Part shown: positions 3,160-61,042 of the stretch, piece by piece
How positions within the stretch are numbered: position 1 is the first letter of the stretch
Layout of the letters: each line of letters opens with the position of its first letter
From: Comamonadaceae bacterium
Lineage (GTDB): Bacteria; Pseudomonadota; Gammaproteobacteria; Burkholderiales; Burkholderiaceae_C
Assembly (NCBI GenBank): GCA_013297925.1
Contig: JAAFJC010000009.1
Span: 997 to 64,996, forward strand
Direction: 5' to 3'
DNA length: 64,000 bases
Program-made: the position numbers and the translations under genes
Notes under the pieces: model-generated
What the model saw: the letters and a program-made list of their open reading frames with translations, nothing else
What the model was told of the DNA's origin: nothing
Databases searched by the model: none

Positions 3160-3894
3160 ATGAGCGTGATCACTCCTCCCACCCGCCAAGCGGCTCTCGT
3201 GCTGTTTTCTGGCGGTCAAGATTCCACCACTTGCTTGGCTTGGGCTTTGCAGCATTTTCCACGCGTGGAGACCATTGGCTTTGACTACGGCCAGCGCCAT
3301 CGCGTGGAGCTGGATGCGCGGCTGGTGGTGCTCGCCGAGATCAAAGCGCAGTTTCCGCAGTGGGCGGCCAAGCTTGGCGAAGATCATTTGCTGGATGTGA
3401 ATGTGCTCGGCCAAGTGAGCGAAACATCGCTCACGCGAGATGTCGCGTTCAAGATGGAAGCAACCGGTTTGCCGAACACTTTTGTGCCCGGCCGCAATCT
3501 GCTCTTCCTCACTCTCGCCGCTGCGCTCGCCTATCGCCGGGGCACAGATGTGCTCGTGACAGGCGTGTGCGAAACCGATTTCTCTGGCTACCCCGATTGC
3601 CGCGATGACACGATGAAGGCGATGCAACTGGCACTCTCGCTCGGCATGGATAAGCGCCTGCTGATCGAAACGCCACTCATGTGGATCGACAAAGCGCAAA
3701 CTTGGGGCTTAGCTCACACACTCGGCGGCGAACAACTCGTGCAGCTCATTCAAGAACACACCCACACTTGCTACCTCGGTGATCGCATTCATCGCCACGA
3801 CTGGGGCTACGGCTGCGGCCAATGCCCGGCTTGTGAGCTGCGCGCGAAGGGCTGGGAGAAGTGGCGTGCATCAAAGCAACAACTATTAAATTGA
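3160..3894 (+). CDS. queC: 7-cyano-7-deazaguanine synthase
   Basis: Contains [11 protein letters not shown] (PP-loop), FVPGRN, and the C-terminal Zn cluster [10 protein letters not shown]. Length is 244 aa. Confidence 0.93.
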
Positions 3895-3923
3895 TAGCGC
3901 TCCGCGCATATTCTATGCCGGCG
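3883..3923 (-). repeat. Family I double-hairpin repeat, copy D (reverse orientation); overlaps the last 3 codons and the stop of queC
   Basis: ctattaaattgatagcgctccgcgcatattctatgccggcg. It aligns with the copies at 26916, 53998, 4636 and 61001. Confidence 0.8.
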
Positions 3924-3950
3924 ACCTGCCGATTTCTCTTTTAAAAGCTT

Positions 3951-4604
3951 ATGAACACACCCTCAACACCACCCATTGCCGATTGGCGTAAAAACTACGA
4001 GCGTGGCGAACTGCTGGAATCGCATGCCAACAAAGACCCGCTCAAGCAATTCGACGCATGGCTGCAAGACGCTGTGAAGGCCGAATGCCCTGAGCCCAAC
4101 GCGATGACGCTGGCCACCGTAGGCTCAGATCTGCGGCCATCCACACGCATTGTGCTGATCAAGGGCTACGATGAAAAAGGGATTGGCTGGTTCACGAGCT
4201 ACGGCTCACGCAAAGGCACCGAGCTCGCCGGCAATCCATTCGCTGCGCTGCAATTCCATTGGGTGGAGCTGGAGCGCACAGTGCGCATCGAAGGCCGTGT
4301 CGAGAAGATGAGCGCCGAAGAATCGGATGCCTATTTCAACAGCCGCCCGCTGGCCAGCCGCATCAGTGCGATCACCAGCCCGCAGAGCCAAATCGTGCCC
4401 AGCCGACAGTGGCTGGATGATCGCTCTCTGGCAGTTGCGCAAGAACAAGGTGATCATCCAGAGCGCCCAGAGGATTGGGGCGGCTATCGTCTCATTCCAG
4501 ATCGCTGGCAATTTTGGCAAGGCCGACGCAATCGCTTGCATGATCGCTTGGCTTACACCTTGAACGCGCAGGCTCAGTGGCAAATCGAACGCCTAGCACC
4601 TTAA
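3951..4604 (+). CDS. pdxH: Pyridoxamine 5'-phosphate oxidase
   Basis: Contains [29 protein letters not shown], and [22 protein letters not shown]. Length is 217 aa. Confidence 0.93.
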
Positions 4605-4635
4605 ATGTCAGGATTTCGAAGTCTTTTCGCCATAT

Positions 4636-4677
4636 CGCCGGCATAGAATGTGCGCGATTAGCTATTGAAATAATAGC
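4636..4677 (+). repeat. Family I double-hairpin repeat, copy A (forward orientation)
   Basis: cgccggcatagaatgtgcgcgattagctattgaaataatagc. Intergenic, immediately 3' of pdxH. Confidence 0.8.
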
Positions 4678-4692
4678 AACTCATTTCTCTTT

Positions 4693-5625
4693 ATGAAACC
4701 TGAAACCGTTCAGCGCTGGGCCTTTGCCCTGCTCTTGGTCACCCCTGCTCTCTGGTCTGCCAACTATCTCGTGGCGCGCTTGGCGCCTGGCGAAATCGCG
4801 CCACATATGCTCGCGTTGTGCCGCTGGGCGCTTGCTGCCACGGTGCTGGGCGTGTTTGCATTTCCCGAGCTCAAAGCCAAGCGCCATTTGATTTTGAAAA
4901 ACGCTTGGCATTATTTGGTGCTCGGCGCTTTAGGCATGTGGATCTGCGGCGCTTGGGTGTATATCGGCGCGCGCTCCACCAGTGCCACCAATATCGCGCT
5001 GATTTATTCGCTCTCGCCAGCTTTCATCGTGCTTTGCGCTTCGATGTGGCTGCATGAAAAGCTGCGTGACATTCAATGGCTGGGGATCGCACTGGCTTTT
5101 GCGGGGCTGATTCATGTGGTGATCAGAGGGCAGTGGGGCAATTTGCTGGAGGTGCGTTTCGTGCCTGGCGATTTATGGATCGTCGCTTGTGCATTTAGCT
5201 GGGCCGCGTATGCCTTGCTCATGAAAAAATGGCCAACGGATTTCTCTCCGATGGCGCGGCTCGTGCTGACAGCCATTGGCGGTTGTATTGTGCTGCTCCC
5301 GTTCACCGTGATCGAAGCGGTGAGTGGCCTGCCGCTCACGCAAACGCTTTGGGGTTGGAAATCTTTTGCACTGATTGCTTTGGCTGGCCTGGTGCCAGGC
5401 GCATTCGCCTATTGGGCTTACAGCACGGCGCAAAAGACCTTGGGCGCAGCACGCACCGCGATGGCGCTTTACATGGGGCCGCTGTACGGCGCGCTGCTCG
5501 GCTGGGTGTTTCTCGGTGAGACAGTGACCGGGTATCACGCCATCGGTGCCCTGCTCATCCTGCCGGGCTTGTATTTGGCTTCTTACAGCCACTCAGGACA
5601 TCAAAGCGCCGCAACGAAAAGCTGA
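4693..5625 (+). CDS. EamA/DMT-family permease
   Basis: A 310-aa protein with about 10 hydrophobic helices and a duplicated EamA-like organisation. Confidence 0.75.
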   Translation: MKPETVQRWAFALLLVTPALWSANYLVARLAPGEIAPHMLALCRWALAATVLGVFAFPELKAKRHLILKNAWHYLVLGALGMWICGAWVYIGARSTSATNIALIYSLSPAFIVLCASMWLHEKLRDIQWLGIALAFAGLIHVVIRGQWGNLLEVRFVPGDLWIVACAFSWAAYALLMKKWPTDFSPMARLVLTAIGGCIVLLPFTVIEAVSGLPLTQTLWGWKSFALIALAGLVPGAFAYWAYSTAQKTLGAARTAMALYMGPLYGALLGWVFLGETVTGYHAIGALLILPGLYLASYSHSGHQSAATKS

Positions 5626-5683
5626 CACGACACAAGCAGAGCGCAAGTCTTTTGAATCTTGCAGGGTATCTCCTAGTTTGAAA

Positions 5684-6646
5684 ATGCACGATGCACCTTT
5701 AAGGTGGCAGCACTTCAAACTTGACATGATTCACACCTACGATGACCGATTTTCCCCCGTCGCGCAAGATGCAGGATCGGTCATCCGTCTTTGCACGGGC
5801 GCAAAGTGGAGTGAAGGGCCTGTGTGGATGCATGAGGATCAATCGCTGCTGTGGAGCGATATTCCCAACAACAGAATACTCCGCTGGAACAAGCAAGACG
5901 GCATGACGGTTTGGCGAGGCAACGCCGAATTCACCAATGGGCACACACGCGAAGCAGACGGCTCACTGCTGCATTGCTCACACGGCTTGCGAGCGATTGT
6001 GCGCACGAGGTTTAGCAAAGATCTCTCTGAGCAACGCGATGAGATCGTGGTGGATCGCTACCAAGGCAGGCGCTTGAATTCGCCCAATGATGTGGTGGTG
6101 AAATCCGATGGCACGATTTGGTTTACCGATCCGCCTTACGGCATCGTATCTAACTATGAAGGCTACAAAGCAGACAGTGAATTGGGCAATTGCTATGTGT
6201 TTCGCTTCGATCCGGTGAGCAAAAGCCTGCGCATCGTGACAGATTTGATCGAAGAGCCTAATGGCTTGGCTTTCTCGCCCGATGAATCCACGCTCTATAT
6301 CTCAGACACCTCCGCGGCCTTGAAGAAAGATGGCGGCGGCAACCATCACATCATGGCCTTTGATGTGGTGGGTGGGCAAGACCTTGCCACGCCTCGCCTC
6401 TTTGCGACGATTTCTCCCGGCCTCTCCGACGGTTTCCGCGTAGATCAGCACGGCTTCCTCTACACCAGCTGCGAAGAAGGTGTGCAGGTGTATCACCCTG
6501 ATGGCACCAAGATGGCGTTGATCGACGTGCCGGAGAAAGTGGGCAATCTCACCTTCGGCGGCATCTCGCGCAACGAGCTCTACATCTGCGCCAGCCAATC
6601 GCTTTACTGCATCCGCCTCAATACGAAGGGGCTGCAAACCCCATGA
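5684..6646 (+). CDS. SMP-30/gluconolactonase/LRE-family lactonase
   Basis: Contains WSEGPVW, LLWSDIPNNRILRW, RLNSPNDVVVKSDGTIWFTDP and EPNGLAFSPDE. The internal ATG was chosen because the track ORF start overlaps the EamA gene. Confidence 0.85.
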   Translation: MHDAPLRWQHFKLDMIHTYDDRFSPVAQDAGSVIRLCTGAKWSEGPVWMHEDQSLLWSDIPNNRILRWNKQDGMTVWRGNAEFTNGHTREADGSLLHCSHGLRAIVRTRFSKDLSEQRDEIVVDRYQGRRLNSPNDVVVKSDGTIWFTDPPYGIVSNYEGYKADSELGNCYVFRFDPVSKSLRIVTDLIEEPNGLAFSPDESTLYISDTSAALKKDGGGNHHIMAFDVVGGQDLATPRLFATISPGLSDGFRVDQHGFLYTSCEEGVQVYHPDGTKMALIDVPEKVGNLTFGGISRNELYICASQSLYCIRLNTKGLQTP

Positions 6647-12265: not shown

Positions 12266-13086
12266 CCAAACTCGCGGCCAAGCTCAGCCGCTCTCGCGCC
12301 TGCAGCGCGCAAAGCTTGCTCAAAATGTTGGCCGACCAGGCTGTCTTGCATGGCGGTGATAGCGGCATAGGTTGTGCCACCTTTGGAGGTGACGCGCTGG
12401 CGCAATACTTCGGGGCTGTCGTGCGACTGCCGAGCCAACTCTGCTGCGCCTGCAAACGTGCTTTGCGCCAACTGGCGCGATTGCGCCTCAGAAAGCCCCA
12501 TGCTCTGCCCCGCACGCATCATGGATTCGATGAAGAAAAACACATAGGCTGGCCCTGAGCCTGAGAGCGCCGTCACCGCATCCAGATGGCTCTCATCCGT
12601 CACCCATAGGTGTTCGCCCGTGGTGGCGATCAGCGCTTCAATGCTGCGCTGATCCGCCTCGCTCACGCCAGCACGGGCATAGAGGCCCGCAATGCCTTTG
12701 CCGATCAGCGCCGGTGTGTTGGGCATAGCGCGCACGATACGCTGCGTAGCAAGCTGCTGAGCCATGCTACTTGAAGTGATACCCGCCATCACGCTCAGAT
12801 GCAAAGCCTCTTTGGTATGTGCAGCAACTTGCGCAGCAGCTTCCCGGAAAGTTTGAGGTTTAACCGCCCAAACGATTTGCTGAGCCCGCGCTAGGGCTTT
12901 GCTGGGCTGCTCCAGAGCAGTGATACCGAAATCACTGGACAGCTTGTCGCGCTGTGATGCAAGCGGTTCGATCACGATGAATTGCGCAGCGGCCATGCCT
13001 TGGCGGCGCAGCCCGCCGATGATGGCACTGGCCATGTTGCCGCCGCCAATGAAAGCCACTGTTTTGGGAGGGGGAGAAGAAGTCAT
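12262..13086 (-). CDS. proC: Pyrroline-5-carboxylate reductase
   Basis: Contains [26 protein letters not shown] and VTSKGGTT. Confidence 0.9.
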
Positions 13087-13135
13087 ACATAAGTGTAGCT
13101 GGCTCGTCCACACACATTTGGGTTACTCTTACGAC

Positions 13136-18759: not shown

Positions 18760-21627
18760 CTAAACCAAGAGGGCAGAGGCATCCTGAGAAGTCAGGCGCT
18801 TAACGTGCTCAATCAAGGCCGCATCGGTATAGGGCTTGGTGAGATACAAATCCACACCCGCTTCCTCGGCCATATCACGGTGTTTGTCGCTCGCACGCGA
18901 TGTGATCATCACAATAGGGGTGCCCATGAATTGCGGTAACTCGCGCAAACGCTTGGTGAGCTCCAAACCATTCAGGTTGGGCATTTCCAAATCTGTCAGC
19001 ACAATAGCAGGCACTTTGGTGCGCACAGCCTCCAAAGCTAAGAAGCCATCTGAGGCAGAGAAGACTTCATAGCCCGCGTCTTCCAGCAGCTGCTCCATCG
19101 AGCGGCGCACCGAGAGCGCATCATCCACCACCAAGATACGCGTGCGCTGAACAGCCATCCGACGACGCAAGGCCAGCGAAGAGCCAGAGAACCTCGTGGA
19201 TTGGGCAGCTCGCTCCAGCGCAGCAATATCAAGCAAAAACATCGGGCGGCCATCGTTGCGCAGCGCGCCGCCCACAACGCCTGCAATACGCCGAGTCAAT
19301 CGCCCTACATCTTGCAAAATCAGCTCGCGCGCATCGACCACAGCATCGGCTACGACGGCGACAGTCTGCGTTGCGCCTCGACACAGCACGGCTGGCTTAC
19401 CCGCAAGAGATGCGCCAGCGTCGTCAAAGCCCAGCCACTCGCCCAGCGCATAAACGGGATAGTCTTGCTCCAAGTGACGCAAAACAGGCGTCGCCCCTTC
19501 GATGATCTTGACCTCATCGGCAGCCAGCGCCTGCACCACTTGATCGGATGGCAAGGCCACTTCTTCTTGCGCACATTGCACGATCAGCGCTTGCACTGCT
19601 CCGCTAGAAACAGGCACACGAACAATAAAGCGTGATCCCGCATACGGCTGACTGGTGATATCTAGTCGCCCCTTCAGGCCCGCCACGCGATCGTTCACGA
19701 TATCCATGCCCACGCCGCGGCCAGAGACTTCGGTCACTTCGCCTTTGGTGGAAAAACCTGGGCGCAAAATCAGGCGGCGCATCTCGTCTTCAGAGAGCTT
19801 TGCACCACGCTCAATCAAGCCATATTCCACCGCTTTATCGTAGATCGTGGGCAAATCAAGGCCTCGGCCATCATCGGCGCAGACCAGCTCCACATCTTGG
19901 CCCACGCGACGAAAACTCAGCGTGATCGTGCCCATCTCGCTCTTGCCCAGCATGCTGCGCTCATCGGGCGATTCCAAGCCGTGATCTACCGCGTTGCGCA
20001 GCAAATGCAGCAGCGGCTCGGTCAGCCGTGTGAGCACATCGGCATCCAGCGTGGTGGCATCGCCTTCAACGATGAGCTGCGCTTGTTTGCCAGTGGACGC
20101 TGCCGTTTGCGCCACATTGCGTTTTAAGCGCGGCAAGATGCTCTTCACGGGCACGAGGCGAGCGCCCAGCAAATCACGGTGCTGCTGGCGCTGCAGCTGA
20201 TCTTCATCGCGCAGAATTTGCTGCGCTAGAGCCACTTGATTGCGCGCGTCTCGCGCCAGCTCTAACTCATCTTGCACAGCCTCAGTCACGAAGCGCGAGA
20301 GGGAATAAAGCGCGTCGTAGCGATCCATCTCCAGTGGATCAATGCTCTCGCCCAATTCTTTTTGGCCGCGCAGCTGCACGACTTGTTTATCCACCGTTTG
20401 CTCCAGCTCACGCAAGCGGCGAGTCAGCTCGGCATGGCTCACTTCAATCGCAGCGAGCCGATCATTGGCAGTGCGCACCAGTTGACCCACGCGCTGCGAG
20501 GCAACGATGGATTGCGTGGCGCGGCGTAGCACACGGCTCAAGCGATTCACGCCCACGCGCAGCATCTGCTCCTCGGTAGGTTGTATTTCTGTTTGAGGGC
20601 CAGTTTGCGCTGCTGCCGGCATATTTTCTGTGCTAGCAGCTATGTTATTCATAGCATCTTGCGCTACACCCATGGCAGACAAGGGCTCGGGCGATTGTGT
20701 CGCTGCTGTCTCTTGACGAATCCAATTGACCCAATCAATCAAGCGCTGCAAACATTCTTGCGCGCCAGCGGGCGGCGCTTCTTCGCCTTGCAAATGTGCC
20801 ACCATATGCTGCAAGATCTCTACCGCATGGCGCATATCGCGCACAGCGGCAGCGTTACTCGGCTCGCCAGCTTGGGTTTGCTCCAGCGTCCACTCCATCA
20901 CGTCTTCTAGCCGATGCGAGATGCGGCCAATGCCGGGCAAGCCAATGATGTTGCCCGAGCCTTTGAAGGTGTGAGCGATGCGCTGCGCTTCTGTCAAGCG
21001 CGCAGCATCCGCGCGGCCAGCGGCCAGCTCATCCAAATAGCCCATCAAGCGCTCAAGCTGCTCGGGCGCATCTTGCAGCATGGCTGAGAGTAAACCGCCA
21101 TCCACATCATCAGTTTGCAAACTCACATCTTCAAGCGTGGCATCTTCCACCACAGCTTCAGCCGCAGCTGCCTCTTCACTGCTGAGCGCAGGCGGCACGA
21201 GCAGCTGCTCATGCAAAAGCGCCAGCGCAGCGTCATCTGTGGCCTGCGGGCAGGCTTTGAGGTAATCGATGATGGCTTGCGCAGTATGCTTCTTCGCAGG
21301 AGACTCTAGGTAAGCCAGCGCAGGCGCCGTCCAACTCGCCAACCATTGCAGGCTGGCGCTATCTGGCGCCATCATTTGCAATTGAGCGAATTGCGAGACC
21401 TGAGACAAATAGTTGCCCCAACCGTGCAAACTCACCAAAGCACTGGCCTGCATAGAACGCTCGATGTAGCCCACCACGGGCTCTAGCAGCTGAGCGGCCT
21501 CCTCAGGCTGGGCAGCTGCATCCAGTGCCGCCTGCATGGCCATGGGCACGTCGAGTGCGAACTCTTCGTGCAACAGGCTCAGCAGATCGTTGATGTTCAT
21601 CTTGGCTTTGGCAGTGTGATGGATCAA
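18760..21627 (-). CDS. CheA-type hybrid histidine kinase (Hpt-HATPase-CheW-REC), ChpA/PilL-like
   Basis: Hpt motif HTFKGSGN; N box [12 protein letters not shown]; DDGRGLD; GRGVGMD; a CheW-like region; and a C-terminal receiver [23 protein letters not shown]. Confidence 0.88.
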
Positions 21628-24119
21628 GCCAGCTTGAACTGACCCACCGCCGCTGTGAGCTGGCGCGATGAATCAGCCAGCGATTGCGTCGACGCGGTTT
21701 GCTCGGCAATCGCAGTCGAGGTTTGCTCAGTACCTGCGTTGATGTCCAGCACAGATTGCTGCAGATTGGAAGCAAGCTGGGCTTGCTGCTCGGAGAACTG
21801 CGCAATCTGACGCACCAAATTCACCAGCTGCTGCGTGGTTTCCTGGGTTTGATTCATCTGCACACCGGCGCGTTGCGCCAGATCGGTTTGGCGCACCACA
21901 TCGCCAATCAAGCGGTTCACGGTGAACAGTGTTTCATTGGTCTCAGCTTGAATATTGCCCACCAGCTGGGAGATCGTAGCGGTAGCTTGGCGAGAGCTAT
22001 CCGACAAGCGCTGCACCTCTTCCGCCACCACCGCAAAGCCGCGCCCGGCTTCGCCAGCTGTGGCTGCTTGCATGGATGCATTCAAAGCCAGCACGTGTGT
22101 GCGCTCCGAGATCGCATTGATCAGCTGCACAGCGGTAGAAATCTCTTGTGAACGCTCGCCCAATCGCTTGAAGCGCTTTTCCATGTCAGAGATGGATTCG
22201 CGCAGCTGATCCATACCTTGTACTGTGCCCTGCACCGCGGCCAGCGCGTTCTGCGTTGCGTCAGCAGCCAAACCGGCGGCTTTGTTCGATTGCTCGGACA
22301 GCTGCGCCACCTGAGCGAGCTGAGAGGTCGTTTGACTCAAGTTGTCCGACATCGCATCAAGCGCCTCTCGTTCTGCACGCGCCGTCTCTTCCACCATCAC
22401 CGATTGCACCCGTACGGATTCAGATGTCATCGCCACTTGCTGCGCAATTTTTTGCACTTCTGCCAGCGTGCGTGCCGTCTCGTCGGAGAACTGGTTGATG
22501 GAAGACGACACCGTACCGATAATGTCTTCCGTCACCGGAGCTCGCGCTGTCAAATCTCGGTTGGAGAGCTGGAACACAGCTTGCAACAAATCAATCACCG
22601 AGTTGTTGAGCGTTTCGTTTTCTTTAGAAGCTTTCTCCAGCGCTGCAATACGGTCATCGAGCAATCCGTCAAATGCACGCCCCAGATCGCCGATCTCGTC
22701 TTGCTGCACTAACTGACTGCGCGCGTTGGTTTGGCCAGCGGCTACTTTTTGCACGGTCTCGGAGAGCGTTTGAATCGGCTTGAGCAGTTGACGCAAGAAT
22801 ACCGTTACTGCCAAGCCAGCAAACAAAATCACGCCGACGGCAATGGCCAAAGCACGAATCAGAGAGCCTCGGTTAATTTCATTGATCGATTCATCGGCTT
22901 CAGCCTCATCGATCTTGGCCACCAAGCCCCAGTTCAGACCTTGCACTTTCAAAGGGCCATAAGAGCCTGCAGATTTGATGCCTCGGTAGTCCACAAAATC
23001 AATGAAGCCCTCTTGCCCGGCCAAGGCCGGGCGCGTCGCGTCGGAATCAATGGTGACGAGACCGATGGTGGTTTCTTTCTTCAGCATACTCGCCTTCTGA
23101 TTGGCGCTGAGCTTGCTGCCCAACAAATCAGCGAAGGCTTGCTTGTTTTCTACCAAGTAGCGTGAATTGGTGCGAAGTAGTTTGTCTTGGCCAACCAAAA
23201 ACATGTCACCCGTTTTACCCAAGCCAATTTTTTCCCAGGTTTTGCCAGAACTCATCACATCAGTGAGCTTGTCGATCGGATACTGCATCGCGATCACGCC
23301 GATTTGCCGATCACCATCAAATATGGGAGCAGCAGCAAATGCCGCCTGGTCGTCGTAAGAGGCCAAATAAGGTGCGAAATCTGAGAGAAAAACGGCATCG
23401 CGGTTAGCCGCTTGCTTGACCTTGCCGTAGGCCTCGGCAAGCTTCGTGCCTGATGCAATGCCCTTGGTCAAGGATGTGCCGAAATCCAACTCCTTGAACA
23501 CAGTGTAGATCACGGTATCCGTTTCGATGTCGATCAAAAAGATGTCGTAATACTCGGAGAGTTTTTGTGCGCGTTCAAAACCAGGGTGAAATTGAGCGTG
23601 GGCTTGGCTGTAAGCGCCAGCTGCCTCACCCTTGGTTAAGCGTTCTTTCTGACCCAAGGGGTTAGGATTGCGTGCGATGTATTCGCTTTGCAAAGCCAAG
23701 CCATTGGGATCTACCGCCGCGATAAATTTACTCAAATCTGGGGCAGAGCCTGCGTTGCGCTTGACATATTCAGGGGCAAACTGCTCTTGCACATATTTTG
23801 TGACCTCTGCTGCACTAACGGCGGTATCACCGCCCCGATCTTTGGCAGCACTTGCAAAGGCAGGCTTGAGGGCGCGCATGGCTTCGACGGTAGATCGCTG
23901 TGCAGCCAAAACTTGCAAGCTTCGCACACGTGTGTTGATTTCATCCGTCAGCTGCTGACGCTTGGTGTCACGCAAAGAATTAAGTTGATTCTTTGTACGC
24001 GTCTCGAGCGCATCATCGGCGAGTGAGGATGCACCTTGCCAGAGCAGCGCGGAGGTGATCACCACGGGAATCAGCGTCAGCAGGCCTGCGCCGATGAGCA
24101 TTTTTTGCCGAATATTCAT
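21624..24119 (-). CDS. Methyl-accepting chemotaxis protein with a large periplasmic Cache-like domain and HAMP
   Basis: Signalling hairpin [34 protein letters not shown], two TM helices, 831 aa. Confidence 0.88.
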
Positions 24120-24171
24120 GTCGTAGGCTCCTCGTGCCTCGTGGCACAGTGTGTCTCAAAAGAGAAAGTTT

Positions 24172-24639
24172 TCATGCTCGGCTTAACTCGTCGCTTAAAG
24201 CAGCGAGCAAACGCTCCGCATCGATTTCAAGAAATTCATGACCCGCAGCATTTTTACCAACGCCAACGCACAACTCGCGCAAGCGCGCGGGCAGCACATC
24301 GGCATAAGTGAGTGTTTGCGGCTCATACCCTAGTTGCTGAGGCAAGCCCTCAAATGCAATAGCAATCGCATCGCCCGTGGTATCGGCACTGCTTTGCGTG
24401 GCAGACAACCCGCCGATCAAGAGGCGCTGATGCTGCGTCTTGGAAGCTGTGCTGTCGCCCAGATACACCCGCAAATCAATCACGGGGACGATATTGCCAT
24501 CGACGTTCGCCCCTCCGAGCAACCAAATCGGCGCTTTAGGGATAGGGCTGAGCTCGAAGGAGTCGACGATCTGGCGCGCCCAGTCAAAGGGAAATGCTAG
24601 CGCCCAGGAGCCACAGAGGATGCCTTGTGCGAGCTTCAA
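24172..24639 (-). CDS. CheW-like coupling protein (PilI-like)
   Basis: A 155-aa protein with GGANVDGNIVPVIDLRVYLG (CheW motif), lying between the MCP and the response regulator. Confidence 0.7.
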   Translation of the reverse strand: MKLAQGILCGSWALAFPFDWARQIVDSFELSPIPKAPIWLLGGANVDGNIVPVIDLRVYLGDSTASKTQHQRLLIGGLSATQSSADTTGDAIAIAFEGLPQQLGYEPQTLTYADVLPARLRELCVGVGKNAAGHEFLEIDAERLLAALSDELSRA

Positions 24640-24658
24640 AGGAGATACGTTAGAAAAA

Positions 24659-25006: not shown

Positions 25007-25100
25007 AACTTTTACTCCAATACAACCTATTTTGCACGATCAATATGGATGAAACTGCGCGCGCTACAAATATGTCAAATGCAACAGCACGGCTCGATAC

Positions 25101-26177: not shown

Positions 26178-26416
26178 GACTGAACTCCTGTGATCTTTAA
26201 GATCCGAGATAGCGCATGCTTTAAAAGAAAAATATTCATAAAAATCATGGCTTTGAGCCAAAGAGTTAATGAATTAGTATGCCTTTATTTTATAGAAACT
26301 TCGTGACTTTGCCTAGGGTTTGTCCAAGCTAAATAGCTTTTGACAACGGGCTACTTGCCCAGCCACAATCCATGTCAACCTGCTTAACTCAAGCAAACCA
26401 ACAAGACGAAATCATC

Positions 26417-26915: not shown

Positions 26916-26957
26916 GCTATTTATTTGGTAGCATTCCGCGCATATTCTATGCCGGCG
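26916..26957 (-). repeat. Family I repeat, copy E (reverse orientation), 8 nt after the peroxidase stop
   Basis: gctatttatttggtagcattccgcgcatattctatgccggcg. Confidence 0.8.
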
Positions 26958-33312: not shown

Positions 33313-34025
33313 AGCCTTCTCATCAATTCGCTCACCAACTTCACGGCCAGTGGCCCAGCGATCTCGTTCACAAACTTCGGAAAATCGACATGGGCGTTGT
33401 CATCGGCTTTGTCGGAGATGCTGCGCACAGCTGCAAAGGGAACATGGTAATCGTGGCAGACCTGCGCAATCGCTGCGCCTTCCATTTCAACGCATAAGGC
33501 ATCGGGCAAGGCCTCTCTCAAGGCCTGCACTTCGGCTGCGCTGCTGACGAAGCGATCGCCGCTAATGATCAGTCCCTCATGAATTTTAAAAGGTTTTGAG
33601 CTGTTAGCCCGCATATCGATTGCGCGGAGCGCTTCCAAAAGCATAGCAATTAATGAAGTATCTGCTTGGAAACGGCTGACTCCGGTGTATGGGATTTCAA
33701 AGCGCGGAAAGAGTGGCGAGGCATCCATGTCGTGTTGCAGGTATTGGCTGCCGACGACCACATCACCGACGTTGATGTGAGCGGCCACTGCGCCTGCTAC
33801 GCCCGTAAACACCATCCGCCGCACCTTGTGGCGCTCGATCAGCATAGTGGCCGTCGTGGCGGCGGCGACTTTGCCAACCCCTGCCAAGGCCAAAATGACG
33901 GGCTTTTGATGGACGAATCCAAGCTCTAGCCGGTGTGGAATCTGCGGGAGCCGCTCATGATTTGAGAGCAACTGAACGAGGCCCGTTTGCTCTTCGGGCA
34001 AGGCGCTGATGATGGCGATGGTCAT
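33309..34025 (-). CDS. PNP_UDP_1-family nucleosidase (MTA/SAH nucleosidase-like)
   Basis: Contains IAIISALPEE, FTGVAGA and VEMEGAAIAQV. Its stop overlaps the stop of the kinase gene (TTAA). Confidence 0.75.
   Translation of the reverse strand: MTIAIISALPEEQTGLVQLLSNHERLPQIPHRLELGFVHQKPVILALAGVGKVAAATTATMLIERHKVRRMVFTGVAGAVAAHINVGDVVVGSQYLQHDMDASPLFPRFEIPYTGVSRFQADTSLIAMLLEALRAIDMRANSSKPFKIHEGLIISGDRFVSSAAEVQALREALPDALCVEMEGAAIAQVCHDYHVPFAAVRSISDKADDNAHVDFPKFVNEIAGPLAVKLVSELMRRL
33606..33653 (+). repeat. Family I repeat, copy L, inside the nucleosidase coding sequence
   Basis: gcccgcatatcgattgcgcggagcgcttccaaaagcatagcaattaa. It aligns along its full length with the reverse complement of copy E. 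Confidence 0.65.
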
Positions 34026-46591: not shown

Positions 46592-47179
46592 ATGCCTGCA
46601 TTTTTTCCCTTCATGAGAAACGCTATATTGTTAATAGCATTGTTTGCAGGTTTGATCCCAGCTAACAGCCGATTTTCCTATGCAAGCAGTCCTACAACGC
46701 CGCCTTCCGTCTCACAAGGCTTGAGCAATGCCAAAGCGCTTGGGCAGGCGCGACTTGTGGTGTATGGCTTCAATATCTATGACGCGAAGCTTTGGGTCGA
46801 GGATGGCTTTTCTGCCGCAAACTACAACACTGAGCCATTCGCCTTGGAGCTGCGCTACTTGCGCAATTTCAGTGGCACCATGATCGCTGAACGCTCTCTC
46901 AAGGAAATGAGACGCATCGGAAATGTGAGCGATGAGAAAGCTGCTCAGTGGCTGGAGATGATGAAGAAAACCTTTCCTGATGTGAAGAAAGGCGATCAAC
47001 TCATCGGTATGCATAAGCCCGATGGTACGGCGAGCTTTACATTGAATGGCAAGCCTATTGGTGAGATGCGTGATGAAGAATTCACACGGCTTTTCTTTGG
47101 TATTTGGCTCAGCCCCAAGACGAGTGAGCCCAAAATGCGCAATGAACTCATCGGCGCCGCAACTGGAGCCAAGAAGTGA
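46592..47179 (+). CDS. Chalcone-isomerase-like secreted protein
   Basis: Signal peptide, and LELRYLRNFSGTMIAERSLKEM. The family call rests on recollection of this conserved cluster. Confidence 0.55.
   Translation: MPAFFPFMRNAILLIALFAGLIPANSRFSYASSPTTPPSVSQGLSNAKALGQARLVVYGFNIYDAKLWVEDGFSAANYNTEPFALELRYLRNFSGTMIAERSLKEMRRIGNVSDEKAAQWLEMMKKTFPDVKKGDQLIGMHKPDGTASFTLNGKPIGEMRDEEFTRLFFGIWLSPKTSEPKMRNELIGAATGAKK
46622..46662 (-). repeat. Possible degenerate family I copy (K) encoding the signal-peptide core
   Basis: gctatattgttaatagcattgtttgcaggtttgatcccagc. It is read in the same frame as copy H (AILLIALFAGLIPA versus TIVLIALGAVSLPA). Confidence 0.3.
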
Positions 47180-48471
47180 CAGCGACTGTCGCTCTTGAAG
47201 CGAGCACTCCAGCAGAGAGCTCGCCGCATTGGTCGGCTCGCCAAGGTTTCTCCTATGGAGCTTTAGGCATCGCTTTGGCTTTTGTGGCGCTGCCGTTGTA
47301 CGTGCTCTTGCCCAATCACTACGCGCGTGAATTTGGTGTTAGCCTGAGCACGCTGGGCGCGATTTTGCTGGGTGCGCGCTTGTTTGATGCGGTGATTGAT
47401 CCGGCTCTGGGCGGCTGGGCAGATCGGCTCTTTGGCCGCTCAGTGCAAGCTGCTTGGCGCATGGCCTGTGTGGTTGCTGTGATCTTGGCCGCTGGCTTTG
47501 CAGCTTTGTTTTTTCCGCCTGTTCGCGGCAATGGTTTGCTGGTGTGGGCAACGCTGGCACTGATCGTCACGTATGCGGCCTATAGCTTCGTGAGTGTGAC
47601 GCACCAGAGCTGGGGCGCGCGCTTAGGTGGCGATGCGCCTTTCCGCGCACGCGTGGCAGCTTGGCGTGAAGCGCCGGGATTGATTGGTGTGTTGCTGGCT
47701 TCGACGCTGCCCGTCGTGGCTGGTTTTCCAATCATGGTCAGTGTGTTTGTGGCTCTGCTTGCATTGGGGCTGTGGGCTTTGTTTTATGCGCCACGCCCGG
47801 CTCAACACATCATGCCCAGCCAAGCCAAGCAAAACCTTTGGCAGCCTTGGAGCAACAGCCGCTTTCGCGCTTTGATGCTGATATTTATTTTGAACGGGAT
47901 CGCCAGCGCAGTGCCCGCCACCTTGGTGCTCTTCTTCGTGCAGGATCTGCTGCAAGCGCCGAAGAATTTAGAAGGCGTGTTTCTTGGCGTGTATTTCATC
48001 GCAGGTGCTTTGGCCATTCCAGTCTGGATGCAAGCGGTAAAACGCATCGGCTTGGCTTGGGGCTGGCTCGTGAGCATGCTGCTCTCGATTGCCGTATTTA
48101 TCTGGGCCGCCACGCTCGGCTCTGGCGATGTGTGGGCTTATGTGGCTGTATGCGCACTCTCTGGCGTAGCGCTCGGCGCAGACTTGGCCTTTCCGAGCGC
48201 TTTGCTGACTGGCGCGATTGCTGCGCAAGGTGATCAGGGTCAGCATGAAGGCGCGTATTACGGTTGGTGGAATTTCGCCACCAAGCTCAACATGGCTTTG
48301 GCCGCTGGCTTGGCATTGCCTTTGCTCGATGTGTTTGGCTACACACCTGGGGCGCGCGATCCGCAAGCCTTACAAGCACTGGTGATCGCCTACTGCGTCT
48401 TACCCTGCACTCTTAAATTGATAGCATCTGGCGCACTGTTTTTGGCAGCCAGAGGCAAAAAATTCACTTGA
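47176..48471 (+). CDS. MFS-type transporter (GPH-like)
   Basis: A 431-aa protein with about 12 TM helices. Its GTG start overlaps the previous stop. Confidence 0.75.
   Translation: MTATVALEASTPAESSPHWSARQGFSYGALGIALAFVALPLYVLLPNHYAREFGVSLSTLGAILLGARLFDAVIDPALGGWADRLFGRSVQAAWRMACVVAVILAAGFAALFFPPVRGNGLLVWATLALIVTYAAYSFVSVTHQSWGARLGGDAPFRARVAAWREAPGLIGVLLASTLPVVAGFPIMVSVFVALLALGLWALFYAPRPAQHIMPSQAKQNLWQPWSNSRFRALMLIFILNGIASAVPATLVLFFVQDLLQAPKNLEGVFLGVYFIAGALAIPVWMQAVKRIGLAWGWLVSMLLSIAVFIWAATLGSGDVWAYVAVCALSGVALGADLAFPSALLTGAIAAQGDQGQHEGAYYGWWNFATKLNMALAAGLALPLLDVFGYTPGARDPQALQALVIAYCVLPCTLKLIASGALFLAARGKKFT
48410..48450 (-). repeat. Possible family I copy (I) near the MFS C-terminus
   Basis: ctcttaaattgatagcatctggcgcactgtttttggcagcc. 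The first 16 nt match copy D in 15 of 16 positions. Confidence 0.35.
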
Positions 48472-53977: not shown

Positions 53978-53997
53978 GTCTCTTGGCCTGATTGTTA

Positions 53998-54037
53998 CTA
54001 TGAATTTAATAGCTGCTTGCGCAGTATTTATGCCGGC
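53998..54037 (-). repeat. Family I repeat, copy F (reverse orientation), between ubiA and ssb
   Basis: ctatgaatttaatagctgcttgcgcagtatttatgccggc. Confidence 0.8.
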
Positions 54038-54067
54038 TAGCTGCCCAAAAGGCTTTGAAAATCGAGC

Positions 54068-54565
54068 TTAGAACGGGATATCGTCATCCATATCATCAAA
54101 GCCACTGCCTTGCTTGGCCTTAGGTGCTGCGCCAGCTGGAGCAGCGGCTGGGCGCGCTGCTGGCGGGCGAGAAGCTGGAGCAGGTGCGCGTGAATAACCG
54201 CCACCGCCTTCGTCTGGCGAACCCGCGCCTTGGCGGCTTCCCAGGAGCTGCATTTCTGTAGCGATGATGTCCACTGTGTTGCGCTCGATGCCGTCTTTAT
54301 CGGTGTATTTGCCGTACTTCAAGCGGCCTTCCACGTAAAGCGGCGCGCCTTTTTTCACATACTCGCCCACGATCTCGGCCAGGCGGTCAAAGAACTGCAC
54401 ACGATGCCATTGGGTGTCTTCAATCGTCTCACCGGAGGTTTTGTCTTTGCGTTTGCTGGTGGTGGCGATCGAGATATTGGCCACCGCGCCGCCGGAGGGC
54501 ATGTAGCGGATTTCGGGATCGCGCCCGCAGTTGCCCATGAGAATGACTTTGTTGACGGAGGCCAT
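54068..54565 (-). CDS. ssb: Single-stranded DNA-binding protein
   Basis: OB fold beginning [12 protein letters not shown], a Gly/Pro-rich linker, and an acidic tip ending DDDIPF. Confidence 0.95.
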
Positions 54566-58250: not shown

Positions 58251-58259
58251 CGCATCAAA

Positions 58260-59270
58260 ATGTCCGCTCCACAAGCTAACCTAGAGATCCTGCCGCGCAG
58301 CGTGAACGTGTTGCTCGCGCTAGCAGTCGTAGCGCTCGCCGGCGTGCCCATCTTCGGCGCGGAATACACCATTGGCCTGATCACCAGCATGATGATCATG
58401 GCGATTTTTGCGATGAGCTTGGATCTGCTACAAGGCGTCACCGGGCTCGTCTCGCTCGGGCATGCGGCCTTCTTTGGCTTTGCGGGCTACGCGCTGGCCT
58501 TCATCACGCCATCGTCAGATGCGATCAGCCTCTGGTGGAGCTTGCCGCTCGCGCTCGCCGCCTCCGCGCTCGTGGCCTGCATCATCGGTTTCTTCGTGGT
58601 GCGCACGCATGGCATTTATTTCATCATGGTCACCATGGCTTTCGCGCAGATGATGTATTTCATCTTCTTTGACAACAAAGTCCTGTTCGGCAAAACGCTG
58701 GGCGGCTCAGACGGTGCGTATTTGAATTTCAAGCCAAGTGCAGGCATCTTTGATTTAGAAAACAAGCGCGTCTTCTTCTACTTCACGCTCGTCTGCATGG
58801 TCAGCGTCTATGCCTTCCTACGCCGCTTGCTCTTCTCCCCCTTTGGCCGCGCGCTCGCAGGCATCCGCGCCAATGAGCATCGCATGCGCGCCCTAGGCTT
58901 CGCCACCTTCGCCCACAAGCTCGCCGCGTTCACGCTCGCAGGCGCGCTCGCTGGTTTAGCCGGCTACTTGTGGGCCGCGCAAACCGGCTTCATCAATCCC
59001 GAGCTCATGGGCTTTCATATGAGCGCCCATGCCATCATGATGGTGATCTTGGGCGGCATGGGCAATTTCGCGGGCGCGGCGATTGGCGCTTTTTCGTTCG
59101 AATATTTGCTGCATCTGTTCAAAGATCTCCCGGCGATTGGCAACTTCCAAACCGGCAAACATTGGCAGATGTGGATGGGGCTTTTCATCGTAGCGCTCGT
59201 GATCCTCGCGCCGCGCGGCATCTTGGGGCTGGTCTCCAAATGGTTAGCGAAGAAGGATGCTGAGAAATGA
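58260..59270 (+). CDS. livM: HAAT-family ABC permease (LivM-like)
   Basis: A 336-aa protein containing GLVSLGHAAFFGFAGY. Confidence 0.85.
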   Translation: MSAPQANLEILPRSVNVLLALAVVALAGVPIFGAEYTIGLITSMMIMAIFAMSLDLLQGVTGLVSLGHAAFFGFAGYALAFITPSSDAISLWWSLPLALAASALVACIIGFFVVRTHGIYFIMVTMAFAQMMYFIFFDNKVLFGKTLGGSDGAYLNFKPSAGIFDLENKRVFFYFTLVCMVSVYAFLRRLLFSPFGRALAGIRANEHRMRALGFATFAHKLAAFTLAGALAGLAGYLWAAQTGFINPELMGFHMSAHAIMMVILGGMGNFAGAAIGAFSFEYLLHLFKDLPAIGNFQTGKHWQMWMGLFIVALVILAPRGILGLVSKWLAKKDAEK

Positions 59271-60025
59271 CAGCCGTCCTCTCAGCCAAAAATCTCACCA
59301 AGCGCTTCGGCGGCTTGGCTGCTGTGAATGAAGTGAGCCTCGATCTCTGGCAAGGCCGCTTGCATGCCGTGATCGGGCCCAATGGCGCAGGTAAATCCAC
59401 GCTCGCCAATTTGCTCTCCGGCGATCTGCCGCCCACCTCAGGCACCGTGCATCTCTCAGGAATTAACATCACCGGCTGGAGCCCAGAAAAAATCTCCCGC
59501 CAGCGCCTAGGCCGCAGCTACCAGAAGACCAATATTTTCCGCAGCTTCACAGTCTGGGACAACATCCGCCTCGCCGCCCAATCGCGCAATCAGCCTTTCG
59601 CTTTCAATCCACTCGGCTGGCTATCTAACGCTTCAAAGCAAGCCGCAGTGAACGCAAGAGCCGAGCGAGCCATGGAGCTCGCCTTGCTCACCGAGCGCCG
59701 CAACACCATCGCCGGCGCGGCCAGCCACGGCGAGCAGCGTCAGCTAGAAATCGCCATGACGCTTGCCACCGAGCCCCAAGTGCTGTTGCTCGATGAGCCC
59801 CTCGCCGGCATGGGCACAGCCGAGGCTGAGCGCATGGTGCAGCTCTTGCTCAAACTCAAAATCGATCATGCGATGCTCTTGGTGGAGCACGATATGGATG
59901 CGGTGTTTGCGGTGGCTGATCACTTGACGGTGATGGTCAATGGTCAAGTGATTGCAAGCGACAAGCCAGCAGTCGTTCGCAGTGATGCGGCGGTACAAGC
60001 CGCGTATCTCGGCGAGGAGCATTGA
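59267..60025 (+). CDS. livG: HAAT-family ABC ATPase (LivG-like)
   Basis: Contains GPNGAGKST, SHGEQRQLE and LLLDEPLAG. Confidence 0.88.
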   Translation: MTAVLSAKNLTKRFGGLAAVNEVSLDLWQGRLHAVIGPNGAGKSTLANLLSGDLPPTSGTVHLSGINITGWSPEKISRQRLGRSYQKTNIFRSFTVWDNIRLAAQSRNQPFAFNPLGWLSNASKQAAVNARAERAMELALLTERRNTIAGAASHGEQRQLEIAMTLATEPQVLLLDEPLAGMGTAEAERMVQLLLKLKIDHAMLLVEHDMDAVFAVADHLTVMVNGQVIASDKPAVVRSDAAVQAAYLGEEH

Positions 60026-60130
60026 TGAAAGCTCTCCCCCGTAGCGCCTTCGGCGCCTCCCCCATCCGGGGGCGCAGCCAGCAGCCCGGCAAAGCCGGTT
60101 CTGCGGCTGCCGCTTGGAAGAGATAAAGCA

Positions 60131-60971
60131 ATGACTTCACCACTCATCTCCGTTCGTGGCATCCACACCTATTACGGCCAAAGCCACATCCTGCGCGGCA
60201 TTGATTTCACCGTGCAGCGCGGCCAAACCATTGGCCTCATGGGGCGCAATGGCATGGGCAAAAGCACCCTGCTCAAATCCATCATGGGCATCGTGCCGCC
60301 GCGCGCAGGCACAGTCGAGATCAAAGGCAAAAACATGCTCGGCAAGCCCACCTTCGATTGGCCTCATGGGGCGCAATGGCATGGGCAAAAGCACCCTGCT
60401 CAAATCCATCATGGGCATCGTGCCGCCGCGCGCAGGCACAGTCGAGATCAAAGGCAAAAACATGCTCGGCAAGCCCACCTTCGAAGTCGCACAAATGGGC
60501 ATTGCCTACGTGCCCGAAGGCCGAGGCATCTTCGCCAATTTAAGCGTCACAGAAAACTTGAAGATGGCTGCACGCCATGGAACGCAAGGGCAGAGAGATT
60601 GGACATACGAGCGCGTCCTAGAAACCTTCCCCAGACTCAAAGAGCGCCTCAATCACGGTGGCCAACAACTCTCCGGCGGCGAGCAGCAAATGCTCACCAT
60701 CGGTCGAGCCCTCATGACCAACCCCTATGTGCTCATCCTAGACGAAGCCACAGAAGGCCTCGCTCCATTAATCGCGAAAGAAATCTGGCGCATCTGCGGC
60801 GAGATCAAACAAAGCGGTATCAGCTCCATCATCGTCGATAAAAACTGGAAGCACGTCACCCAAATCACCGACAACAACGTCATCCTCGTCAAAGGCGAAG
60901 TCGTCTTCAACGGCTCCTCCGCCGAGCTCATCGCCAAGCCCGAGATTCTTGAGCAGCATTTAGGTGTTTGA
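60131..60971 (+). pseudogene. livF: HAAT-family ABC ATPase (LivF-like) frameshifted by a 127-bp tandem duplication
   Basis: The N-terminus and Walker A (GRNGMGKST) are in the frame of track ORF 60131-60841. The rest (LSGGEQQML, ILDEATEGLAP) is in the frame of ORF 60156-60971. Deleting one 127-bp copy restores a single ORF of about 238 codons. Confidence 0.8.
60231..60484 (+). repeat. Perfect direct tandem duplication, 2 x 127 bp
   Basis: 60231-60357 and 60358-60484 were compared base by base and are identical. The boundary is ambiguous by 1 nt. Confidence 0.95.
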
Positions 60972-61000
60972 TACGCCGTTTATGAGCAAAATCGGCCAGT

Positions 61001-61042
61001 CGCCGGCATAGATACTGCGCGAGCAGCTATTGAAAACATAGC
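61001..61042 (+). repeat. Family I repeat, copy C (forward orientation), 3' of livF
   Basis: cgccggcatagatactgcgcgagcagctattgaaaacatagc. Confidence 0.8.

Follow-up and report, generated by a model that had tools for sequence, protein, structure and literature searches.

Introduction

Dispersed DNA repeats of the Comamonadaceae have a precedent in BRE, an element of ~90 bp (75-91 bp) and 69% G+C, with T runs at both ends and G/C-rich hairpins, which is found in Bordetella and in the Comamonadaceae (Polaromonas, Delftia, Rhodoferax and Acidovorax) and whose function is unknown (Hot et al. 2011, PMC3110155). Its copies are mostly intergenic, with some overlapping the ends of open reading frames (ORFs) and some lying entirely within coding sequences, and they often form variable number tandem repeat arrays (PMC3110155). 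Here we characterize a repeat family in a stretch of 64,000 nucleotides from a Comamonadaceae bacterium (assembly GCA_013297925.1, contig JAAFJC010000009.1, positions 997 to 64,996 of the forward strand; "the window" denotes this whole stretch), in which a motif of ~66 bp occupies spacers and coding sequences and is conserved at the nucleotide level among orthologous sites of several species. An original prediction, made from the letters of the window, had recognized a dispersed repeat with translated in-frame copies resembling the RPEs of Rickettsia (reviewed in PMC10969869), which is borne out, and had been aware of no equivalent in Burkholderiales, for which BRE provides a precedent, copies wholly within coding sequences included (PMC3110155).

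Like BRE, the family resides in Comamonadaceae chromosomes and is mostly intergenic, with some copies within coding sequence. Unlike BRE, its unit is 66-67 bp and AT-richer, with a T run at one end only and an AT-rich terminal hairpin, and inspection of the 16 window copies and of the match lists of related loci, made without a Tandem Repeats Finder run, revealed no head-to-tail neighbours. Conservation at synonymous sites, documented below for the family, is not reported for BRE.

Three further classes of short bacterial sequence invite comparison. RPEs are palindromic repeats of ~150 bp that occur between genes and in frame within unrelated housekeeping genes, to whose products they add a peptide that the fold can accommodate (PMC10969869). 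The present family likewise lies in frame within unrelated hosts, and an addition of 23 residues to GuaA fits that pattern; unlike RPEs, the unit is 66 bp with no stable palindrome, many copies are overlaid on their hosts without lengthening them, the DNA itself is constrained, and the sequences are unrelated. The uptake sequences of Pasteurellaceae (USS) and Neisseriaceae (DUS) lie in ORFs in 34.5-65% of cases, prefer poorly conserved residues and show reading-frame biases (PMC2817400). Our family resembles these signals, which number hundreds to thousands of copies each, in its DNA-level maintenance in coding regions, its placement at poorly conserved residues, its use of both orientations and of genes and spacers alike, its preference for particular frames and its restriction to a clade. 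It differs in having no short core of 9-12 bp: the motif is ~66 bp and also appears as discrete 22-codon insertions. We know of no uptake bias or competence in this clade. HIP1 of cyanobacteria is an over-represented DNA motif conserved within and between ORFs, for which DNA-level selection has been inferred and a link with chromosome structure suggested (PMC5861425); HIP1, however, is an 8-bp perfect palindrome and far denser, whereas the present motif is long and composite with sharp ends.

A last comparison concerns REP and BIME sequences and the REPINs mobilised by RAYT transposases, which are G+C-rich, stable, imperfect palindromes of 20-40 bp located outside genes (PMC3733652). The family shares with REPs a concentration of short repeats at gene 3' ends and the absence of target-site duplication (TSD); unlike them, it forms no stable stem-loop and has 11 of its 16 window copies in coding sequence. 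Where RAYT-associated REPs have a conserved GTAG or CGTC tetranucleotide at one end, the 3' arm here ends in (A/G)TAG, in which GTAG is a frequent form and not a fixed tag. REPs are retained by the host and bind host proteins. The family fails the defining tests for REPs and for MITEs (miniature transposable elements bearing inverted repeats) alike, and a reading as either did not hold: there is no stable palindrome, neither terminal inverted repeats (TIRs) nor TSD, and paralogues are ~50% identical outside the conserved blocks, so that the near-identical copies expected of a MITE were not seen in a sample amounting to a few percent of each genome.

In the following we document the reality, anatomy, distribution, age and frame use of the family, the outcomes of its insertion into or overlay on host proteins, and the nucleotide-level conservation of its copies. 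From these we consider what kind of process may maintain it.

Results

Identification of the repeat family

Related loci were collected with the scan pattern GCCGGCATA-N5-TGCGC-N5-GCTA, using one genome per species, which yielded at least 104 loci from ~12 species; only fragments of each genome were sampled in this way. To avoid circularity, a profile hidden Markov model (HMM) was trained solely on copies from other genomes and then run on the window, where it retrieved 16 copies scoring 16.4-59.5 bits; the maximum over 20 triplet-shuffled windows was 12.3 bits. Simple patterns gave a concordant excess: GCTATT-N5-AATAGC with one mismatch allowed matched the window 5 times against 0.16 expected, and the 21-mer CGCCGGCATAGAATATGCGCG with up to three mismatches matched 5 times against 0.02 expected. 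The motif thus occurs about once per 4 kb, in both orientations, with five copies in spacers and 11 in coding sequence. The copies are as follows, with domains and hosts assigned by Pfam where indicated.

3882..3946, minus strand: spacer copy flanked by queC (3160-3894) and the gene for pyridoxamine-phosphate oxidase (3951-4604), hosts by Pfam; 59.5 bits
4613..4678, plus strand: spacer copy between the oxidase gene (end 4604) and the EamA transporter gene (4693-5625); 44.4 bits
13315..13377, plus strand: in-frame copy, sense, in glpK, its encoded peptide preceding the ITNQRETT motif; 52.4 bits
16856..16901, minus strand: partial copy (model positions 21-66) in the SDR gene, read in the second open frame; 27.0 bits
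20593..20656, plus strand: weak antisense copy, located between domains of a histidine kinase of the CheA/ChpA-like type (gene on the minus strand, 18760-21627; domains by Pfam); 23.8 bits
26916..26980, minus strand: spacer copy filling the gap between the convergent genes 26372-26908 (plus) and 26981-28495 (minus); 53.6 bits
30796..30858, plus strand: weak copy in a response-regulator gene, within the linker that joins the receiver to the DNA-binding domain (domains by Pfam); 18.2 bits, E 9e-5
33583..33647, plus strand: in-frame copy, antisense, in the MTA/SAH nucleosidase gene, encoding IAMLLEALRAIDMRANSSKPFKI; 31.0 bits
33912..33970, plus strand: second, weaker antisense copy in the same nucleosidase gene; 19.1 bits
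35605..35666, plus strand: in-frame copy, sense, in the outer-membrane efflux protein (OEP) gene, encoding LKANEALAGKISAQNALFSIA; 38.7 bits
36330..36393, minus strand: antisense copy constituting the signal peptide of an RND membrane-fusion protein (TLTIVLIALGAVSLPAISLFSSQT); 40.4 bits
46622..46679, minus strand: decayed copy constituting the signal peptide of a chalcone-isomerase-like protein; 16.4 bits, E 3.5e-4
48409..48465, minus strand: copy constituting the C-terminal tail of an MFS transporter (ending in TLKLIASGALFLAARGKKFT and the stop); 24.9 bits
53265..53328, minus strand: in-frame copy, sense, in ubiA; 39.5 bits
53997..54061, minus strand: spacer copy between ssb (54068-54565, minus strand) and ubiA; 57.6 bits
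60979..61042, plus strand: copy beginning 8 nt beyond the stop of the gene (60156-60971) for a branched-chain amino-acid ABC ATPase; 52.4 bits

The host genes were identified through Pfam as FGGY glycerol kinase, UbiA, MTA/SAH nucleosidase (PNP_UDP_1), SDR, OEP, HlyD-type fusion protein, MFS, CheA-like kinase and response regulator. All 13 positions listed in the original prediction, which had counted at least 9 and possibly 13 copies with about half translated, were recovered by the independent HMM as significant members of one family; the copy placed at 35651 is a genuine member whose true span is 35605-35666 on the plus strand. Three copies are additional to that list (20593-20656, 30796-30858 and 33912-33970), bringing the total to 16. 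The proposed placement of intergenic copies near gene ends was upheld, since all five spacer copies adjoin stop codons, each beginning or ending within about 10 nt of one. So was the expectation that intragenic matches exceed chance, which they do by far: the independent HMM and the triplet shuffles together rule out chance or codon composition as the source of these matches.

Anatomy of the 66-bp unit

The consensus, aTTTTtAAGC.aaaT.gGCc..TAGCCGGCATAGAATcTGCGCAGAGTGCTATTgAATTaATAGYa, spans ~66-67 nt, with sharp boundaries beyond which information falls to zero. The unit is therefore longer than the ~41 nt first proposed, reaching ~25 nt further 5' of that core. Copies selected by the HMM as secondary copies, rather than chosen by the scan pattern, display the same conserved blocks and a total of ~60 bits; the information-rich blocks are TTTT.AAG, T.GCCGGC.T., TGCGC, TGCTA and TAG. 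The two hairpins originally described fared differently: GCATA..TATGC occurs in a subset of copies only, whereas GCTAT-N5-7-ATAGY is a family feature, its AT-rich stem (GCTAT/ATAGY) of 5-6 bp being kept across the family. The 3' end reads (A/G)TAG(C/T), with A in 64% and G in 34% of copies at the first position, so that GTAG is present in about a third.

Neither the consensus nor real copies, on either strand, fold better than dinucleotide shuffles (z from -1.3 to +0.5), and mutual information over all column pairs revealed no base-pair covariation. The top signals came from neighbouring columns that define two sub-families, differing at model columns 17-24 of the core (GGC[A/G]T[A/G]....) as GCCGGCATAGAATCTGCGC and GCCGGCGTATTTA(C/T)TGCGC, or ATAGAAT and GTATTTA types; both occur in several genomes, and they translate to AGIES and AGVF(T/P). 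TIRs are absent, the ends TTTTtAAG and ATAGYa being non-complementary, and no flanking direct repeat of k = 2-8 is enriched at any boundary offset among 163 full-length copies. Rfam contains no matching family (whole window at gathering thresholds; 3850-4720 at E <= 1), and no tRNA or tmRNA was found in the window, hence no support for an origin from either. A relation to restriction or methylation was also considered and rejected, as the embedded palindromes GCCGGC and TGCGCA occur at expected frequency outside the copies (44 versus 45.6 and 71 versus 77.6, respectively).

Each strand of the unit has one stop-free frame of 22 codons, encoding FLKQKQPVAGIESAQSAINSIA in the sense and AINSIALCADSMPANGQFGLKN in the antisense direction, and nearly all intragenic copies are read in the single stop-free frame of their strand. 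The two frames share their wobble base pairs (columns = 0 mod 3), so that the silent positions coincide for both reading directions. The information profile of the family has no 3-base periodicity.

Motif conservation irrespective of codon position and strand

Identity at columns that the scan pattern leaves free is 69% between orthologous copies and 50% between paralogues, whether the latter are compared within or between genomes. Copies thus group by locus and not by genome, indicating that they are old and vertically inherited; orthologous copies are common to at least five species. Concerted evolution, or conversion from a master copy, was rejected because paralogues of the same genome are no closer than those of different genomes and only block columns are conserved.

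As a control for ascertainment, 12 loci were chosen by exact identity to homologues of the window GlpK, nucleosidase and UbiA; the loci also include the OEP, fusion-protein and SDR genes nearby, together with the spacer between ssb and ubiA. They cover seven of the window's coding copies. For six of these an orthologous copy was detectable in two or more of the four other species; for the seventh, in the SDR gene, which a single locus covers, the counterpart scores 11.7 bits. Pooled pairwise identities in these orthologue sets, sorted by codon position and by the information content of the motif column, were as follows.

Flanking codons: position 1, 0.861; position 2, 0.918; position 3, 0.542
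High-information motif columns: positions 1-2, 0.885; position 3, 0.861 (340/395)
Mid-information motif columns: positions 1-2, 0.877; position 3, 0.652
Low-information motif columns: positions 1-2, 0.682; position 3, 0.373

The floor for position 3, measured at non-homologous offsets, is 0.27. High-information and flanking third positions differ with a Fisher odds ratio of 5.2 and a nominal p = 1e-40, pairs within a gene family being non-independent. The gradient is present in each gene, in sense copies (ubiA, glpK, oep) as in antisense ones (mtan, encoding the nucleosidase, and mfp, in the fusion-protein signal peptide), and it recurs in an earlier, pattern-ascertained sample. In that sample, at mid- and high-information columns, the partner matches in 86-96% of cases if one orthologue has the consensus base and in 54-60% otherwise. 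Between species the block columns are preserved to a similar degree at all three codon positions, positions between the blocks drift almost freely, and at least one spacer copy shows the same contrast. Because conservation tracks motif information independently of codon position and strand, the constraint acts on the DNA itself. Purifying selection on double-stranded DNA, or a drive equivalent to it, leaves such a signature, as distinct from constraint on a peptide or on a strand-specific RNA.

Insertion and overlay in host proteins

Length comparisons for GuaA, TrpF, HscA, GlpK, SDR and the nucleosidase were made from tool alignments. The clearest insertion is in GuaA, where the host aligns with PDB 5tw7 in two pieces, leaving 23 unmatched residues exactly at the copy. 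Across hosts, the peptide added in the manner of an RPE amounts to +23 residues in GuaA, +5 in GlpK, +8 in the nucleosidase (MTAN), +4 in TrpF, 0 in UbiA, 0 in SDR, and 0 and -6 in HscA. The four clear intragenic copies of the original prediction (glpK, ubiA, nucleosidase and SDR) are consequently not the simple insertions that had been supposed; simple insertion accounts for some sites and not for all.

The glpK value refers to PDB 6ude, and among homologues GlpK P0098 corresponds to the short P0112 type plus ~21 residues. The nucleosidase copy at 33583-33647 adds its 8 residues relative to E. coli-type structures and has equal length in all 120 closest homologues, and the SDR copy shows no gap against PDB 3gk3. 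At the UbiA site there is no indel across 120 homologues, nor against an E. coli UbiA sequence placed in the same alignment. Basal branches of a neighbour-joining tree of these 120 homologues already carry the ubiA segment and a few nested branches have lost it, which places its origin outside this sample. In our own comparison, the threonine aldolase, haloacid dehalogenase, Nnr and RimO hosts exceed their E. coli or human homologues by ~17 to ~33 residues; the ProA and MCCB hosts were likewise set against E. coli or human proteins. Generally, copies fall in loops, in linkers joining domains, in signal peptides and in C-terminal tails, and the linkers concerned include the Ala/Pro-rich ones in E2 and E3 of pyruvate dehydrogenase.

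Orthologous and syntenic sites of individual copies

Scores at orthologous coding sites varied with host and species. The glpK copy has counterparts in L193 (49.6 bits) and L196 (45.3 bits) and is decayed in L194 and L195; the SDR counterpart of 11.7 bits is that of L195. For the first nucleosidase copy, three species give 25.9-47.1 bits and L192 gives 11.7 bits; for the second (33912-33970), L189-L192 give 24-38 bits. The OEP copy has orthologues of 32.0, 37.3 and 41.7 bits, and of 9.4 bits in L192. Orthologues of the fusion-protein copy score 27-54 bits in four of four species, and those of the ubiA copy 36.5-52.0 bits in four species. The decayed signal-peptide copy at 46622-46679 corresponds to a site in L034 that scores 43.6 bits with the same HMM and also fits the scan pattern; L034 likewise holds a 37.2-bit orthologue of the MFS-tail copy, in which the stop codon lies 3 nt past the matched stretch.

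Among spacer copies, that between ssb and ubiA is found also in L185 (64.5 bits) and L187 (57.9 bits), and L188 gives no HMM match, with remnants visible by eye; the copy is kept in three of four syntenic genomes and decayed in the fourth. The copy at 3882-3946, which provides the last codons and the stop codon of queC, has no counterpart detected in the syntenic spacer of related locus L031, and none was detected for the copy at 4613-4678 at the mapped positions in L031 and L067. The queC-pdxH spacer of L031 (L031:770-939, syntenic with window 3855-3969) carries a different inverted repeat, CACGGAAGACACAGAAAA ... TTTTCCGTGTCTTCCGTG, which might be a terminator or belong to another repeat family of spacers. 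At the Variovorax sp. PCZ-1 locus L064, a copy is followed by the same flank as 60979-61042, AAAACTGGGGTCAGATC, within the conserved stretch AAAACTGGGGTCAGATC.CA.TTCA.GACA. Spacers of 64-66 nt may be filled almost exactly by a copy, as at L186:6264-6328 and L189:3713-3776 and likewise at window 3882-3946 and 26916-26980.

Two further features of the window concern the surroundings of the copies. Longest-ORF starts over-extend genes: for glpK the ORF opens 79 codons upstream of where the gene probably starts (MSTIIS at 13136; window 12899-13135), and the ORF at 5546-6646 overlaps the EamA gene (window 5546-5625). Mechanical ORF calls near copies are for this reason unreliable for calling a copy intragenic. 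Beyond the copy at 60979-61042, ~950 nt (61043-61990) between the ABC ATPase gene and a TerC-family gene contain no listed ORF of at least 100 aa and have no Rfam match at gathering thresholds; window 60001-64000 is the lowest-G+C part of the window (0.516).

Distribution across genomes and relative to genes

Across the window and the related loci, nhmmer (E<=1e-5) retrieved at least 233 copies. Carriers among the matches listed are the isolate Variovorax sp. PCZ-1 and glacier-stream metagenome-assembled genomes (MAGs) labelled Variovorax, Brachymonas or Comamonadaceae. In 822 kb around glpK of more distant relatives (GlpK <=72% identical, among the matches listed) only two matches occurred, both at the glpK site, which indicates that the family is limited to a narrow clade. 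The suspicion that spacer copies are gene fragments was not sustained: orthologues in the clade do carry the segment, yet more than 200 copies lie at unrelated loci. A blastn search of the consensus against 72,556 plasmid records gave no match, and a full-text literature search for the core string returned nothing relevant. Of 2.9 million viral contigs in IMG/VR, three fit the scan pattern, with copies that are near full-length (L197:20-82, 42.3 bits), partial (L199:3222-3267, 36.6 bits) and weak (L198:1520-1548, 17.6 bits); they might represent host DNA caught in prophage calls, or else phages of the clade. The pattern is also found in contigs binned in unrelated phyla, L016, from a MAG labelled Candidatus Gracilibacteria, and L039, from a MAG labelled Mariniblastus. 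The copy in L016 is full-length and high-scoring (E 7.6e-17), which suggests that L016 is a Comamonadaceae contig mis-binned into the Candidatus Gracilibacteria MAG.

In the related loci, 58 of 214 classifiable copies (27%) lie deep in ORFs with coding signal on both sides, compared with 52% of random 65-nt windows. Spacers are ~18-fold richer per kb than coding sequence, at densities of 2.4 per kb in convergent, 1.7 in tandem and 0.7 in divergent spacers. Orientation relative to transcription is random, both in tandem spacers (52:49) and within genes (28:30). It has no association with local GC skew (p = 0.24) or gene strand, and we accordingly discarded the idea of a replication-linked orientation (Chi-like, or through lagging-strand insertion).

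Probable relationship to BRE

HMM searches in both directions gave no significant match between BRE and the family: the BRE HMM reached E >= 0.35 at best on the window, and the reverse search returned none. Weaker signals may point to kinship. Two of the three best weak matches of the BRE HMM on the window fall on copies, and on 267 copies the same HMM gave 18 weak matches, 11 of them in one register, against ~1 on shuffles. The core aligned to the BRE consensus (GGCAGC.AGCC.GCATAG...GCGCAG.GTG) with a score of 34, compared with 16.5 +/- 3.0 for dinucleotide shuffles (0/2000 reaching it), and in the forward orientation only. Two points diminish this result: the element consensus was typed with GGCAGC at low-information columns, and a real copy (window 53990-54070), itself preselected by its BRE HMM match, scored 30, which 5 of 2000 shuffles reached. 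On balance we treat the family as a clade-specific composite DNA motif that is probably a distant, AT-richer, non-tandem relative of BRE, not a proven member of it.

Discussion

The explanation we favour, to which we would give an even chance, is that the 66-bp motif is a double-stranded DNA recognition motif kept by selection or drive, which spreads as a unit leaving no target duplication and is tolerated within genes. It would serve as the recognition site for some protein or process, a role suggested by its conservation, and would be held in place by purifying selection or an equivalent molecular drive. New copies would arrive as discrete 66-bp units through a mechanism that does not duplicate the target, and within genes they would survive only where a 22-residue peptide is tolerated, in loops, linkers, signal peptides and termini. 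Such survival would be possible because the unit comprises exactly 22 codons, leaves one frame open on either strand and specifies a bland peptide.

Several observations weigh against this explanation. In the genome fragments sampled, neither a reader protein nor a transposase nor a link to competence was found. The motif's ~60 bits are far above the content of known uptake or nucleoid-protein sites, and point mutation could hardly assemble a motif of that content in place. Identities were counted between pairs that are phylogenetically non-independent, and the window member of each set was picked as an HMM match. Constraint is not universal, as the decayed orthologous copies of glpK in L194 and L195 and of oep and mtan in L192 attest, and of six comparisons of the window with syntenic loci, the four that concern spacer copies found none of them shared. 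Arrival as a simple insertion fails for HscA (copies of 60.6 and 37 bits, at -6 and 0 residues relative to mortalin), for TrpF (a 52-bit copy at +4) and for UbiA and SDR, in which the copy is a same-length overlay on a conserved fold; an E2 linker has a 55-bit copy in L050 and a same-length orthologue in L028 with no detectable match.

A broader form of this idea, which we entertain tentatively and consider somewhat doubtful, regards the unit as a genome-wide DNA signal actively maintained in the clade by selection or by biased uptake or repair, a long counterpart of the uptake sequences and of HIP1, with BRE as its high-G+C dialect. The motif would then be written into spacers and, at synonymous or tolerant positions, into essential genes, and candidate readers would include a receptor for DNA uptake, a protein organising the nucleoid or a recombinase that has become domesticated.

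Purely selfish mobility of the RPE or MITE kind, with random insertion, in-frame survival in genes and neutral decay afterwards, would account for much of the family's arrangement: a discrete unit of 66 bp, equal to 22 codons, in which each strand has a single frame free of stops; the 23 residues cleanly inserted in GuaA and the ~+17 to +33 residues in threonine aldolase, haloacid dehalogenase, Nnr and RimO, the latter in our own comparison with E. coli or human homologues; placement in loops, linkers, signal peptides and termini; the presence or absence of spacer copies between the window and L031 or L067; and a spacer density ~18-fold that of coding sequence. We nonetheless judge it unlikely. 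Block columns in orthologues are conserved at synonymous sites (0.86 versus 0.54), which neutral decay cannot yield, and several high-scoring, full-length copies add zero residues to conserved folds. The unit has no TIR or TSD, near-identical copies were not seen, paralogues being ~50% identical outside the blocks, and no transposase or integrase domain is present in the 33 previously unannotated window ORFs that were scanned. A merely selfish, decaying insertion is at odds with copies that are ancient, common to at least five species and conserved at synonymous sites.

No better placed, in our estimation, is an uptake-signal-like or self-signal sequence, accumulated and maintained through biased uptake in natural transformation followed by recombination, an account that overlaps our favoured explanation. 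The motif is dense (~1 per 4 kb), clade-specific and present in both orientations; many coding copies alter protein length little or not at all; and motif positions, wobble bases included, are conserved at orthologous sites in which the encoded residues are poorly conserved. Window 18760-26261 moreover holds a cluster of CheA-like hybrid kinase, chemoreceptor, CheW and response-regulator genes, as judged from domain scans and syntenic annotation. We take this cluster to resemble the Pil-Chp system controlling type IV pili. The share of copies deep in coding sequence, 27%, may be set beside the 34.5-65% of USS and DUS (PMC2817400). Against this account, known cores are 9-12 bp, within ~30 bp at most, compared with 66 bp and ~60 bits here; clean insertions of 22-23 codons indicate that the motif also moves as a unit; a literature search on DNA uptake sequences in Comamonadaceae was empty, with no specificity or competence reported for the group; and the enrichment beside stop codons is much stronger than pure drive predicts.

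The preference for gene ends might instead suggest an RNA-level element, whether it terminates transcription, stabilises mRNA 3' ends or yields a small RNA comparable to BprJ, with intragenic copies as by-products. A stop codon adjoins each of the five spacer copies, copy density peaks in convergent spacers (2.4 per kb versus 0.7 for divergent), and one Bordetella BRE locus is transcribed as BprJ (PMC3110155). In the 3' hairpin, G-T outnumber C-A combinations on the plus strand (227 versus 54), an excess that is partly an artefact, the 5' arm having been fixed by the scan pattern. Such an element is improbable in view of its random orientation to transcription (52:49), folding energies equal to those of shuffles, the absence of pair covariation and of Rfam matches, and antisense intragenic copies constrained as strongly as sense copies.

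A peptide module, in which the 22-residue peptides FLKQKQPVAGIESAQSAINSIA or AINSIALCADSMPANGQFGLKN would be selected as linkers, helices or signal peptides, fits the consistent peptides of intragenic copies and the two copies that are signal peptides and one that is a membrane-protein tail, but seems to us very improbable and already largely refuted by the orthologue identities, in that 5 of 16 window copies and most copies in related loci are untranslated, low-information columns are less conserved at positions 1-2 than the flanks (0.68 versus 0.89) while block wobble positions are conserved, and the family profile has no 3-base periodicity.

If, then, a double-stranded recognition motif is what these copies represent, the family departs from the usual view of small bacterial repeats as gene-avoiding junk (REP, MITE) or rare in-frame passengers (RPE). 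It is a long, information-rich motif that resides in core enzymes such as GlpK, UbiA, HscA, GuaA and pyruvate dehydrogenase E2/E3, that supplies signal peptides and protein tails, and whose DNA is kept across species with heavily diverged synonymous sites, regardless of frame or strand. The motif misleads codon-based selection tests, calls of gene starts and ORF extensions, and searches for structured RNA in these genomes. BRE gains from it a testable property, conservation at synonymous sites, and Variovorax sp. PCZ-1 offers a cultured host in which a reader protein may be sought. Part of many housekeeping protein sequences in this clade would be dictated by a signal acting at the level of DNA.

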